From IMG/VR virus record IMGVR_UViG_2693429508_000011: 4,835 nt of DNA. One strand, given 5' to 3'. Positions 1 through 4,835 of the stretch are shown here, one piece after another (the stretch's first letter is position 1; every line of letters starts with the position of its first letter). The notes below the pieces were generated by a model that searched no databases, had not been told where the DNA came from, and was given only the letters and a program-made list of their open reading frames with translations. Origin of the DNA: a virus. Its lineage: Duplodnaviria > Heunggongvirae > Uroviricota > Caudoviricetes. The position numbers and the translations under genes are program-made.

Positions 1-30
1 ACACTAAATCAGTAAGTTGGCAGCATCACC
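1..30 (-). mobile_element. IS1 terminal fragment: left inverted-repeat end of an IS1 copy that extends leftwards out of the window
   Basis: Positions 1-30 (acactaaatcagtaagttggcagcatcacc) are the exact reverse complement of the recalled IS1 left end GGTGATGCTGCCAACTTACTGATTTAGTGT. The element is therefore in minus orientation and its boundary is at position 30. Confidence 0.85.
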
Positions 31-137
31 GAAGTGGTAAAGAAGATAATAAAGAATAATATTTAGGGTTATAGGTCTTAGCCCATTTTAAATGGAAGGC
101 AGACATGCAGCCATGCATACTTCGCATGGCAACATAA

Positions 138-566
138 TTATTTAGACAAACTATCTAATTTTTGCGTCGCTTTTTGTGTTAGGTCGCTGTAACTGATAAA
201 CCCTACGTTAGCACCTACAATTAACACTAAGAACACTAAGCTGCATATGGATAGAGTGGCAGATTTATGCTTATGGAAAACAAAATATGCTACTATTGCA
301 CTTAATATGAAGGAAATGAATAGAAATATAGATGTTGATGTTTTTAGATATTTTTCAGGAAATAATGGGTGAGCAATAATGTATACAAGATTAAGTAGTA
401 TATAAATTGCTACCGGAATGAAAATCATGCTCCAGTGTGTATCTTTTTTGGGAGGGATTGGCTGCAAATAATCAGACACCGTTTTTCCATCAGTTTCAAG
501 AAGAATTACTAGATCTCTTACTTCACCACTGACTTGAGTGCCATCCTTAGTAGTAATGTTAATCAT
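138..566 (-). CDS. Hypothetical small membrane protein, 142 aa: about 45-aa N-terminal soluble domain followed by three predicted transmembrane helices
   Basis: ORF 138..623 trimmed to the internal ATG at 564-566, which is preceded by a strong Shine-Dalgarno GGAGGG with a 5-nt spacer (minus strand reads tttGGAGGGaaaaaATG). Three hydrophobic stretches (IFIPVAIYILLNLVYIIAHPLF, IFLFISFILSAIVAYFVF, LSICSLVFLVLIVGANVGFI). Its ATG overlaps the upstream gene's TGA as ATGA. AT-rich, unlike the neighbouring phage genes. No family recognised. Confidence 0.6.
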   Translation of the reverse strand: MINITTKDGTQVSGEVRDLVILLETDGKTVSDYLQPIPPKKDTHWSMIFIPVAIYILLNLVYIIAHPLFPEKYLKTSTSIFLFISFILSAIVAYFVFHKHKSATLSICSLVFLVLIVGANVGFISYSDLTQKATQKLDSLSK

Positions 567-940
567 TTTTTCCCTCCAAATACGATGCCCTCTACGTCTT
601 TGGAAGCTTTTTGTGATGACCACTCCTCTGAATCAGGTGATTTAATTAAAAATATTGTATCTCCATCAAAAATCGTATTTGTTCCGTAAAAATTCACATT
701 TGATAGATCACCACCAAAAACCCTCTGCCCACTCGAGGTAATTGCCTCACCTAATTTAGTAAAATTACCAGCAATAGATGATTTTCTTTTTCCACTTCTA
801 TTCAAAGTGGCTTTAATTACACCACCACCATCCTTAGAGTTAAATAATTGAATGTCCACTCCAGCAGTTGGTTGTATATATTTTGAAAGCTCTTTCTTGA
901 ACTTGTTAATATATTTATCTTTGTTTTCTTTGTTGGTCAT
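563..940 (-). CDS. Hypothetical soluble protein, 125 aa, Gly/Ser/Lys-rich; first gene of a two-gene operon
   Basis: Uninterrupted 125-codon ORF in AT-rich DNA with a single Met start at 940. Its stop (TGA, 563-565) overlaps the start of the downstream membrane-protein gene. Upstream Shine-Dalgarno is weak (GGAT). No recognisable family from sequence alone. Confidence 0.5.
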   Translation of the reverse strand: MTNKENKDKYINKFKKELSKYIQPTAGVDIQLFNSKDGGGVIKATLNRSGKRKSSIAGNFTKLGEAITSSGQRVFGGDLSNVNFYGTNTIFDGDTIFLIKSPDSEEWSSQKASKDVEGIVFGGKK

Positions 941-1027
941 TGGTTAGATCCATAGTTCTGGCTGTGATTAGGTGAAAGTATACAAGGTTTTTAAAGCGAA
1001 GATCACTGTTTTGGCTTCAAGATAGTT

Positions 1028-1056
1028 TTGATTTATCGTAATCAATCCGCCATAAT
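1028..1056 (+). promoter_or_regulatory. Candidate sigma70 promoter upstream of the nin operon (-35 TTGATT, 17-bp spacer, -10 CATAAT)
   Basis: TTGATT at 1028-1033, 17-bp spacer, CATAAT at 1051-1056, about 150 bp upstream of the ybcN start and oriented towards it. Hexamer match only, no experimental support. Confidence 0.3.
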
Positions 1057-1204
1057 CCTCTCATCGGAGCCTGAACAACTCCGGTGACTTCTGCGCATTT
1101 AAGGGGACTTAAATGCGACCACAATCTGAACTCATCACCTTGTCACAGATGCAGAAATGCACCTGCGATTTTCTGCATTCTGCGGTTTCCGTTAGGGAGG
1201 CCGT

Positions 1205-1660
1205 ATGACTCTGCCAGTAGACGGCATCAAACTCCATCGCGGTAACTTCGCGGCCATCGGCCAGCAGATTCAGCCATTGCTGGATGCCGGGCAATGCTTA
1301 CGCCTGCAGGTTAAGCCGTGGCGCGAGAAGCGCAGCCTGTCGCAGAACGCGCTCAGCCACATGTGGTACACGGAGATCAGCGAATATCTCATCGCCCGCG
1401 GCAAGACCTTCGCTACGCCTGAGTGGGTCAAAGACGCGATGAAGCACACCTATCTCGGCTACGAAAGCAAAGACCGTGTAGATGTCGTGTCCGGCGAGGT
1501 CACCACCGTCCAATCCCTCCGCCATACGTCAGAGCTGGAAACCGGCGAGATGTACATCTTCCTGTGCAAAGTCGAAGCCTGGGCGATGAATATCGGCTGC
1601 CACCTGACAATTCCGCAGAGCTGTGAATACCAGCAGCTGCGCGATAAGCAGGAGGCGTAA
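1205..1660 (+). CDS. ybcN: NinB/YbcN-family phage protein (nin region recombination / DNA-binding protein), 151 aa
   Basis: 151-aa ORF with Shine-Dalgarno GGGAGG 5 nt upstream of the ATG. Length and position (first gene of a ninE-ybcO-rusA cluster) match DLP12 ybcN as recalled. Sequence identity is recalled, not searched. Confidence 0.8.
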   Translation: MTLPVDGIKLHRGNFAAIGQQIQPLLDAGQCLRLQVKPWREKRSLSQNALSHMWYTEISEYLIARGKTFATPEWVKDAMKHTYLGYESKDRVDVVSGEVTTVQSLRHTSELETGEMYIFLCKVEAWAMNIGCHLTIPQSCEYQQLRDKQEA

Positions 1661-1830
1661 TGGCTACACCGCTTATTCGTGTCATGAACGGGCACATCTA
1701 CAGAGTATCAAATCGTCGTAAGCGTAAGCCTGAGCTGAAGCCATCCGAAATACCAACACTGCTCGGATATACCGCTAGCCTGGTTGATAAAAAATGGTTG
1801 CGACTGGCAGCAAGGAGGAATCATGGCTGA
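1660..1830 (+). CDS. ninE: NinE-family small phage protein, 56 aa
   Basis: Hand-translated ORF missing from the supplied track (below its size cutoff): [56 protein letters not shown]. Its start overlaps the ybcN stop (TAATG). The basic RKRKP motif and 56-aa length fit NinE. Confidence 0.75.
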   Translation: MATPLIRVMNGHIYRVSNRRKRKPELKPSEIPTLLGYTASLVDKKWLRLAARRNHG

Positions 1831-2113
1831 TTTGAGAAAAGCAGCGCGTGGTCGGGAATGCCAGGTAAGAATCCCTGGCGTATGTAATGGCAATCCTGAA
1901 ACGTCAGTACTGGCACATATCCGGCTGGCTGGATTGTGCGGTACCGGTATCAAACCGCCAGACCTGATTGCCACCATTGCATGTTCTGCCTGTCACGACG
2001 AAATCGACCGCCGCACATATTTTGTCGATGCTGAGTATGCAAAAGAATGCGCGCTGGAAGGTATGGCGAGAACGCAGGTTATCTGGCTGAAAGAGGGGGT
2101 TATTAAGGCGTGA
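1823..2113 (+). CDS. ybcO: YbcO-family (DUF1364-like) putative phage nuclease, 96 aa, Cys-rich
   Basis: ORF 1784..2113 trimmed to the ATG at 1823, which is preceded by AGGAGG (1812-1817). Begins [14 protein letters not shown]; 96 aa matches DLP12 YbcO. Overlaps the ninE 3' end by 8 nt. Confidence 0.8.
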
Positions 2114-2472
2114 ATACCTACAGCATCACATTACCCTGGCCTCCGAGCAATAACCGCTATTACCGCCATAATCGCGGGCGCACACACATCAGCGCAGAAG
2201 GGCAGGCATACCGCGATAACGTCACCCGAATCATTAAAAACGCAATGCTGGATATCGGCCTGGCTATGCCAGTGAAAATCCGTATTGAGTGCCACATGCC
2301 GGATCGCCGTCGCCGTGACCTGGATAATCTGCAAAAAGCCGCTTTTGACGCACTCACCAAAGCAGGTTTCTGGCTGGATGATGCTCAGGTCGTTGATTAC
2401 CGCGTTGTGAAGATGCCTGTTACCAAAGGTGGGAGGCTGGAACTGACCATCACCGAAATGGGGAATGAATGA
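2110..2472 (+). CDS. rusA: RusA Holliday-junction resolvase (endodeoxyribonuclease RusA), 120 aa
   Basis: 120-aa ORF beginning [24 protein letters not shown], recognised as RusA. GTG start at 2110 overlaps the ybcO stop (GTGA). Confidence 0.9.
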
Positions 2473-2609
2473 TGTTTGAGTTTTATATGGCAGAACTTCT
2501 TCGCCACCGCTGGGGGCATCTGCGCTTATATCGTTTCCCCGGTTCTGTTTTGACCGATTACCGAATACTGAAGAATTACGCCAAAACCCTGACAGGAGCA
2601 GGAGTATGA
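2469..2609 (+). CDS. ylcG: YlcG-family small phage protein, 46 aa
   Basis: Hand-translated ORF: [46 protein letters not shown]. Its ATG overlaps the rusA stop; size and position match DLP12 ylcG. Confidence 0.65.
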
Positions 2610-2694
2610 AGTCAGAGATAACAATCAACTAATACTGTTTTGTTGATTTTTGCTTGTAATTGGCGTTCTGGTCTGATTTTTGTGGAGTAAGTTG

Positions 2695-3078
2695 ATGCGT
2701 GATATTCAGATGGTTCTTGAGCGTTGGGGAGCGTGGGCGGCTAATAATCATGAAGATGTGACCTGGTCGTCCATTGCCGCCGGTTTTAAGGGATTAATTA
2801 CTTCAAAAGTAAAATCTCGCCCGCAATGTTGTGACGATGACGCGATGATTATTTGCGGGTGCATGGCCCGTCTGAAAAAGAACAACAGCGATTTGCACGA
2901 TTTATTAGTAGATTATTATGTAGTCGGTATGACATTCATGTCACTGGCAGGTAAGCATTGCTGCTCTGATGGTTATATCGGGAAAAGGTTACAGAAGGCT
3001 GAGGGCATAATTGAAGGGATGTTAATGGCATTAGATATCCGGTTAGAGATGGATATCGTTGTTAATAACTCTAATTAA
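2695..3078 (+). CDS. quuD: Phage late-gene antiterminator Q (phage 82 / DLP12 QuuD type), 127 aa
   Basis: ORF 2680..3078 trimmed to the ATG at 2695, preceded by GGAG (2684-2687) with a 7-nt spacer. The Cys-rich 127-aa product ([24 protein letters not shown]...) and its position after rusA-ylcG match the phage-82-type Q of DLP12. Confidence 0.8.
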
Positions 3079-3102
3079 TATGCCAATTGTTTACTAAAAA
3101 TT

Positions 3103-3128
3103 ATTAAAAATGGGGCGTTGCAACGCCC
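3103..3128 (-). terminator. Candidate rho-independent terminator for the minus-strand porin transcript
   Basis: Perfect 18-bp palindrome GGGGCGTTGCAACGCCCC (3111-3128), followed on the minus strand by a T-rich tract (ATTTTTAATAATTTTTAG), about 140 bp downstream of the porin stop. Confidence 0.4.
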
Positions 3129-3216
3129 CCAAAAATAAAGGGTAATATATAACAGAAGGTTTATATAGTTAGAAGCAAGGTTGTGCTCCTAAAGGAAGTG
3201 GCTTGAGGGAGCCACT

Positions 3217-4456: not shown

Positions 4457-4782
4457 NNNNNNNNNNNNNNNNNNNNNNNNNNNNNNNNNNNNNNNNNNNN
4501 NNNNNNNNNNNNNNNNNNNNNNNNNNNNNNNNNNNNNNNNNNNNNNNNNNNNNNNNNNNNNNNNNNNNNNNNNNNNNNNNNNNNNNNNNNNNNNNNNNNN
4601 NNNNNNNNNNNNNNNNNNNNNNNNNNNNNNNNNNNNNNNNNNNNNNNNNNNNNNNNNNNNNNNNNNNNNNNNNNNNNNNNNNNNNNNNNNNNNNNNNNNN
4701 NNNNNNNNNNNNNNNNNNNNNNNNNNNNNNNNNNNNNNNNNNNNNNNNNNNNNNNNNNNNNNNNNNNNNNNNNNNNNNNNNN
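4457..4782. other. Run of 326 N (assembly gap or masked sequence); content unknown
   Basis: Continuous n characters. The two ORFs in the track spanning it (4419..4796 and 4423..4818) are artefacts of translating N. Confidence 0.95.
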
Positions 4783-4804
4783 GTTTACGTACGTAAAAAA
4801 TTGG

Positions 4805-4835
4805 GGTAATGACTCCAACTTATTGATAGTGTTTT
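4805..4835 (-). mobile_element. IS1 terminal fragment: right inverted-repeat end of an IS1 copy that extends rightwards out of the window
   Basis: Positions 4805-4835 (ggtaatgactccaacttattgatagtgtttt) are the exact reverse complement of the recalled IS1 right end AAAACACTATCAATAAGTTGGAGTCATTACC. Same minus orientation as the IS1 end at 1-30. Confidence 0.85.

Follow-up and report, generated by a model that had tools for sequence, protein, structure and literature searches.

Two-part prophage defences have been shown experimentally for lambda rexA-rexB and for gp44/gp43 of the Gordonia phage CarolAnn (PMC6426606). In CarolAnn and in mycobacteriophage Sbash (gp30/gp31), a soluble protein and a small membrane protein are expressed from the prophage and both are needed for defence; the proposed mechanism is a Rex-like ion channel that is activated by a phage protein (PMC6426606). 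The superinfection exclusion protein SieA of P22, which has 162-164 amino acids (aa) and three predicted transmembrane (TM) segments, is sufficient alone (PMC10883804). Here we analyse a pair of small genes, designated A and B, on a 4,835-nucleotide stretch of viral DNA (Caudoviricetes; IMG/VR record IMGVR_UViG_2693429508_000011), referred to below in its full length as the window. This DNA is part of a lambdoid prophage, and the two genes encode a soluble protein followed by a small membrane protein. An initial annotation, made from the letters of the window, had singled them out as a candidate accessory module. As described below, the A/B pair is kept as a unit across bacterial phyla, at great evolutionary depth, and by analogy with the two-part systems just named its most likely role would be phage exclusion expressed from the prophage.

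Both genes are read from the minus strand. Gene A is an open reading frame (ORF) of 125 aa with an ATG start. The ORF that follows it (138..623) contains an internal ATG at 564-566, from which the 142-aa protein B is translated. The stop codon of A (TGA, 563-565) shares bases with this start codon, forming an ATGA at 563-566, and on the minus strand the whole junction reads TTTGGAGGGAAAAAATGATTAAC. Both the stop/start overlap and the strong GGAGGG ribosome-binding site for B, located 5 nt upstream of the start at 572-577, had been pointed out in the initial annotation and were borne out. Protein A (WP_000182282.1) is rich in lysine, glycine and serine (K 13.6%, G 12.0%, S 10.4%) and is devoid of any hydrophobic stretch, signal peptide or TM segment, in agreement with its earlier description as a soluble Gly/Ser/Lys-rich protein of 125 aa; a cytoplasmic location is predicted. 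Its AlphaFold (AF2) model has the topology alpha-beta-beta-alpha-beta-beta-alpha (predicted local distance difference test, pLDDT, 58.5; predicted template modelling score, pTM, 0.61). For protein B (WP_000608370.1), hydropathy analysis revealed hydrophobic segments at residues 43-70, 74-100 and 100-129, and in the AlphaFold model (pLDDT 67.7) a soluble N-terminal part of ~40 residues precedes helices at 44-68, 71-100 and 103-141. Both approaches hence recover the three TM helices behind a short soluble N-terminal domain that had been read from the sequence before. The two AlphaFold models rest on shallow alignments, not on the deep alignments of the A and B families. Overall, the N-terminal domain of B (~36 aa) is soluble and conserved; three TM helices follow it, and a short charged helix forms the C-terminus. 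Protein B is predicted to sit in the inner membrane in an N-in/C-out orientation, because basic residues are found before TM1 (KK) and between TM2 and TM3 (HKHK) and the first loop is more acidic in its relatives.

To the extent that complete E. coli genomes were covered, the pair is present in 46 of 5426, once in each, always on the chromosome and always at an identity of at least 99%. At least 1000 contigs, most of them from Shigella sonnei and E. coli, carry the exact A and B proteins, which are invariably labelled 'hypothetical protein'; a probable source of the window is therefore S. sonnei. A word-indexed protein search returned relatives from Enterobacteriaceae only, down to 63-67% identity, and the copies in Enterobacter and Klebsiella prophages are 63-92% identical. 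In genomes of these two genera and in gut metagenomes, the genes for the 125-aa and 142-aa proteins stand side by side without exception, with a lambdoid replication module on one side and a nin module on the other. The surrounding modules themselves differ, being of the O/P, DnaB or DnaC/IstB type on the replication side and carrying YbcN/NinB or DUF1367 on the nin side. Using a profile of A against 1.84 billion cluster representatives (cut-off E <= 1e-3), 111 remote relatives were retrieved from Bacteroidota, Acidobacteriota, Myxococcota and Proteobacteria. Nearly all of them are 120-135 aa long and align with A from end to end at 25-42% identity. Six residues are invariant in the family (F84, G86, T87, K100, W107 and D115) and five are near-invariant (Y10, G39, Q72, N88 and I99). 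Measured against 1.84 billion representatives and 5426 E. coli genomes, the A family is thus rare and patchy.

Wherever A was found with enough downstream sequence, a B-like partner followed. In five metagenomic loci, including metagenome-assembled genomes (MAGs; L018-L020, L022 and L023), a gene of 122-138 aa starts 3-6 bp after A in each case (5/5), and hydropathy shows three hydrophobic segments in its product after a soluble start of ~35 aa. When one genome per species was scanned, 15 A loci were obtained, located in Flavobacteriia (Cellulophaga, Algibacter, Robertkochia, Mariniflexile, Flavobacterium), Bacteroides, Lentimicrobium, Acidobacteriota, Myxococcota, and delta- and beta-proteobacteria. 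A B-type gene comes after A in all 14 scan loci that have enough downstream sequence, mostly with a 4-bp overlap, and A is followed by B in 11 of 11 enterobacterial loci. In total, about 30 of 30 loci with enough sequence have the partner directly downstream, and the 4-bp overlap is retained in most of the remote ones. Whether the two genes travel together in other genomes had been put forward as a check on the initial annotation, and the outcome is that the unit is conserved. The B proteins align with each other; their N-terminal domain is the most conserved part, with G14 invariant and G27 and Y33 nearly so. Across 19 loci, the pairwise identities of A rise and fall with those of B (r = 0.89 overall, 0.67 for distant pairs), which indicates that both genes diverged together, without partner swapping. 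Compared with diverged copies (dS >= 0.9 or saturated), dN/dS is 0.07-0.12 for A and 0.08-0.14 for B, and both genes are under purifying selection. The low dN/dS, together with the conservation of the proteins across phyla, argues that A and B are not chance ORFs.

Searches of sequence and structure databases left both proteins without a family of known function, as had been stated beforehand. No match to A or B was obtained in Pfam, NCBIfam or PADLOC, and with 36 members of the A family and 18 B relatives these three collections gave sub-threshold TM noise only (for example 7TMR-DISM with 21 bits against a cut-off of 29). Profile searches of the sequences in the PDB with A and B returned nothing below E = 0.09. 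End-to-end matches were found in PHROGs, where A belongs to phrog_18061 (E = 9e-85) and B to phrog_16940 (E = 2e-96). Both are automatic clusters of prophage proteins annotated as 'unknown function', without functional information, and no description of either protein or either cluster was found in the literature. Homology to ordinary phage structural or lysis proteins, which would have spoken against an accessory role, was not found. A class I holin with three TM segments was considered for B and rejected: the prophage has its own essD/rrrD/rzpD cassette elsewhere and on the other strand, and no holin family of Pfam was matched. A class II microcin with its immunity protein was rejected as well, the N-terminus of A being, on inspection, a misfit to a double-glycine leader and exporter genes being absent from every enterobacterial locus.

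In lambdoid prophages the pair occupies a defined place. The intact prophages of E. coli A7, 536 and EC36 show the order replication protein, P, B and A on the opposite strand, ybcN, ninE, ybcO, rusA, ylcG and quuD. Lambda has P, ren and ninB at the equivalent place; hence the A/B pair fills the ren slot, its transcription running counter to the early rightward operon. This slot, immediately upstream of the ybcN junction, is a site of variable cargo. In E. coli 23CRST001 (L043, 1978-3424) the slot holds a phosphoribosyltransferase-like gene and a gene annotated as 'NADAR family anti-phage protein', beside an ISVsa5 transposase, and in further E. coli prophages it holds ren with ead/Ea22 and hypothetical genes, an alpha/beta hydrolase, or ren, emrE and ybcK. 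In unrelated prophages, in which the pair lies outside the lambdoid slot, it is found between the integrase and the lysis cassette, again on the strand opposite to the phage operons. A single copy is flanked by rve and DDE transposases.

The composition and the extent of the cassette set it apart from its surroundings. The G+C content is 0.34 in both A and B compared to 0.50 in the nin genes (1205-3078), so that the AT-rich, separately acquired cassette proposed earlier held up, and GC3 (G+C at third codon positions) is 0.26-0.28 for the pair compared to 0.76 for ybcN. Similarity to HK639, phage 82 and about 2100 E. coli genomes starts only at window position 1027, and diverged cassettes are alike from about 123 to about 949; the mobile unit therefore spans roughly 123-1026. 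The cassette-specific DNA takes in a 3' hairpin at 105-135 and an upstream region of 86 nt. These data support the view that the A/B pair is a separately acquired, horizontally mobile, AT-rich cargo ('moron') of the lambdoid prophage. The initial annotation had also attached meaning to the adjacent insertion sequence (IS). This neighbourhood turned out to be incidental: gene P was hit by this IS1 later, in a secondary event, and intact prophages keep P at that place.

Two observations on individual prophages concern the pair and its slot. In E. coli CV839-06 (L001, 15039-16618) gene A is disrupted by an IS1A and gene B is intact, which suggests that loss of A is tolerated there, though the IS may also silence B. 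In locus L005 (GCA_030132385.1) the pair shares the slot between the replication and nin modules with other cargo (5665-7348 and 9118-10971), namely a 377-aa protein with a weak match to a colicin pore domain, an adjoining 174-aa protein with a weak match to colicin immunity, a DndB-like gene and an HNH gene.

The geometry of the operon also calls to mind an addiction module of the toxin-antitoxin kind, in which B would be a membrane-damaging toxin and A its neutraliser. Such a module would stabilise the prophage, or mobile DNA of another kind, and might have an anti-phage effect as a by-product. The layout is typical of these modules: two small genes overlap by 4 bp, and the soluble product is encoded upstream of the membrane product. 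The co-divergence of A and B fits this reading too, as does the sparse, patchy occurrence on mobile DNA, that is, in prophages, in the transposase-flanked copy and on isolated islets. However, A has no recognisable DNA-binding or antitoxin domain, and no toxin-antitoxin family of Pfam, NCBIfam or PADLOC was matched by the pair. The disrupted A gene of CV839-06 next to an intact B is likewise difficult to reconcile with a neutraliser, unless the IS cuts B off from its promoter, and the fusion of A to a nuclease described below would suit a sensor better than an antitoxin. Taken together, an addiction module appears unlikely to us.

Outside prophages the gene neighbourhoods give a mixed picture. 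In an uncultured Bacteroides sp. (MAG UMGS1534; L033, 1356-11919) the pair separates the Mod gene of a type III restriction-modification (R-M) system from the Res gene; an HKD+Snf2 helicase gene and two small genes lie upstream of the pair, and all are on one strand. The Robertkochia locus has a gene similar to HEC-04/ATPase-Toprim ~1.6 kb upstream of the pair. One A relative is part of a larger protein: in P0104 (447 aa; L039, 246-1589) the A domain is N-terminal and is followed by an HNH nuclease domain (Pfam E = 1.3e-12) and, at the C-terminus, a beta-rich domain. This fusion suggests that A is modular and may be joined to different effectors. The cargo positions, the R-M insertion, the HNH fusion and the anti-phage gene that elsewhere holds the same slot are circumstantial hints at defence, and the rarity and patchiness of the A family point the same way. 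The initial annotation had asked whether homologues sit in defence islands; most of the non-prophage loci were found among ordinary genes. In these surroundings were genes for a tRNA synthetase, EPSP synthase, MscL, a CLC channel, and RecQ-like and other helicases.

Such housekeeping neighbours are what a role in host or phage physiology, unrelated to conflict, would lead one to expect, for instance a module for membrane stress, for the regulation of transport or for the timing of lysis that aids the lysogen or the phage. The position of the pair beside the lysis cassette of some prophages and the holin-like size of B point in the same direction. In lambdoid prophages, however, the pair is oriented opposite to the lysis genes and far from them, B matches no holin or transporter family above threshold, and the rarity, AT-richness and mobility of the pair speak against a core role. 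We therefore regard a purely physiological function as improbable.

Phage exclusion from the prophage, which we take as the most likely role, can be outlined as follows. We infer that the pair is expressed in the lysogen, that A and B interact and that the interaction serves against other phages. Translational coupling would fix the ratio of A to B. A could be a cytoplasmic sensor or regulator and B a membrane effector whose conserved N-terminal domain faces the cytoplasm. When a different phage infects the cell, A would engage B, probably via this N-terminal domain, and B would then compromise the membrane so that the infection is aborted; less likely, B would block the entry of DNA. Given the orientation of the pair, opposed to the early rightward operon, lytic transcription of the prophage itself would run antisense through A and B and could switch the pair off. 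Judged from architecture and context, an anti-phage role of any kind is evenly balanced between right and wrong. The Rex-like mechanism with a membrane effector, modelled on lambda RexA/RexB, is less likely than not. The wider proposal, that the pair is the enterobacterial member of an undescribed anti-phage system that extends across phyla and consists of two new protein families, in which A serves as sensor or adaptor and is usually coupled to a three-TM effector through the N-terminal domain of the latter, and occasionally to an HNH nuclease instead, is put forward tentatively.

The alternative step of blocking DNA entry deserves to be considered as a reading of its own, namely superinfection exclusion in which B disturbs the conduit through which incoming phages deliver their DNA and A is a chaperone or regulator of B. 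With 142 aa, three TM segments and a predicted place in the inner membrane, B falls into the size class of SieA (PMC10883804), the cargo position on the opposite strand of a prophage is as would be expected, and the C-terminal helix of B is predicted to be periplasmic. Yet SieA works alone, whereas the soluble partner A is never lost in about 30 loci, and the most conserved part of B is its N-terminal domain, which is predicted to be cytoplasmic, and not the periplasmic parts. Copies also occur outside prophages and in phyla with very different phages, and the hhalign comparison of the B family with P22 SieA gave a probability of 0.5%. An injection block of this type seems to us distinctly unlikely.

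Several results have to be set against a defence role of the kind outlined above. In hhalign comparisons, homology to the Rex proteins was rejected (probability 0.1% for the A family with RexA and 0.6% for the B family with RexB), as was the homology of B to SieA already mentioned, for which the P22 type only was compared. PADLOC-DB v2.0.0, with 5027 protein models including candidate systems, yielded nothing for either protein at E <= 1. Neither A nor B turned up in the supplements of two E. coli defence screens, the files being incomplete and the evidence accordingly weak. Among free phages, a tblastn search with A and B against the 50,697 phage records of INPHARED gave no match. The structure models are of low confidence (pLDDT 58.5 for A and 67.7 for B), and Foldseek of both models against BFVD returned nothing at E <= 1e-3 and no informative fold match. 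With regard to context, 104 neighbour proteins in 13 non-prophage loci are mostly ordinary and include no recurring partner. The R-M insertion was seen once, as was the HNH fusion, and P0104, the protein with the fusion, is known only from contigs of ~1.6 kb from three related samples. Finally, a consensus scan of the region upstream of A (941-1026) revealed no strong or convincing sigma-70 site.

The features of the window are compiled in Table 1.

Table 1. Features of the 4,835-nt window, with positions counted from its first letter
Feature	Position	Strand	Basis or remark
IS1 element end	1..30	none	sequence read; secondary insertion, outside the module
Last codons of replication gene P, cut off by IS1	31..59	+	alignment to E. 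coli A7; left edge of the slot
Stem-loop right after the B stop	105..135	-	z = -3.2 in the window, -6.9 in L006, -5.2 in L005
Gene B	138..566	-	ORF list
Translational-coupling junction	563..577	-	GGAGGG (572-577), 5-nt spacer, ATGA
Gene A	563..940	-	ORF list
Cassette-specific 5' region, putative A-B operon promoter	941..1026	-	boundary by alignment; promoter inferred
Conserved lambdoid module junction upstream of ybcN	1027..1204	+	sequence similarity; right edge of the slot
ybcN, ninE, ybcO, rusA, ylcG, quuD	1205-3078	+	ORFs and comparison with related prophages
Porin gene, full-length, with signal peptide	3267 to about 4349	-	downstream of quuD, opposite strand

Despite the result of the consensus scan, the region directly upstream of A should contain the promoter of the A-B operon. 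The best candidate for a -10 element is TATACT at 977-982, preceded by a TTG and without a good -35 element; the Klebsiella and Enterobacter copies carry TGATATAGT at the equivalent distance from the start. The stem-loop behind B is GC-rich, and its sequence (CCATGCCATGCG...CGCATGGCATGG) is kept between cassettes that are only about 70% identical overall. Its counterparts are located at 8804-8839 in L006 and at 8800-8829 in L005, and the diverged cassettes have a longer perfect hairpin. A T-run following the stem-loop was found on neither strand, and the element may be a terminator or may stabilise the transcript. A search of Rfam with window positions 1-1300 gave no match.

On the left side, the window aligns from base 30 onward with the locus of E. 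coli A7 (L002) from position 5901, where P ends at 5930. On the right side, the junction upstream of ybcN is common to HK639, phage 82 and the E. coli genomes mentioned above at 84-94% identity, the similarity reaching to 1187. A small orf33-like ORF (1113-1208) lies inside the junction and overlaps the start of ybcN, and the record of phage 82 marks a putative promoter and a repeat termed 'possible regulator-binding site' there. The spacer that separates quuD from the porin gene contains a GC-rich inverted repeat at 3100-3135 (GGGGCGTTGCAACGCCCC), which has A-runs and T-runs on its flanks and looks like a bidirectional terminator. Related E. coli prophages label the porin gene 'porin OmpC'; it is a further cargo gene of such prophages. 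A run of N, 326 bases in length, masks positions 4457-4782. IS1 ends are found at both edges of the window (1-30 and about 4795-4835), which indicates that the prophage fragment from the truncated P to the porin gene is bracketed by IS1 copies, an arrangement that resembles IS-rich Shigella genomes.

If the pair does act in defence or exclusion, it would be a compact system of two proteins, encoded in about 800 bp, whose two folds are absent from databases. It is carried by uropathogenic E. coli 536, by Shigella sonnei and by Klebsiella and Enterobacter prophages; its presence in clinically relevant strains means that such a module could affect host range in phage therapy. The P/ren-nin junction of lambdoid prophages would then be a place to seek more cargo of this kind. 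Should it be an addiction or physiology module instead, A and B would still be a well-defined, conserved pair. Either way, the pair adds one more candidate to the many small prophage modules that are being found, and it leaves current ideas unchallenged.

Among known systems, lambda RexA/RexB resembles the pair in being a two-gene prophage operon that encodes a soluble protein and then a small polytopic inner-membrane protein, and in being non-essential lambdoid cargo. RexB has four TM helices, compared to three predicted in B. The membrane proteins are similar in length (144 aa for RexB and 142 aa for B), whereas RexA (279 aa) is considerably longer than A (125 aa), and RexAB lies next to cI, whereas the A/B pair lies in the ren slot between P and ybcN. 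The CarolAnn and Sbash systems are set apart, going by their descriptions, by a soluble partner of ~370 aa with a weak DUF4747 match and a membrane partner with four TM segments, as against an A of 125 aa without Pfam match and a B with three. P22 SieA is, like B, a prophage inner-membrane protein with three predicted TM segments that is transcribed against neighbouring phage genes, but it acts without a partner, whereas B is preceded by A in about 30 of 30 loci. Type II toxin-antitoxin modules share the small, overlapping two-gene operon, but their recognisable antitoxin and toxin domains were not found in A and B. A and B are two undescribed protein families, and the cargo operon that they form, a soluble protein joined to a small membrane protein in a prophage, is a known design, for which lambda RexA/RexB and CarolAnn gp44/gp43 are the closest working analogies.

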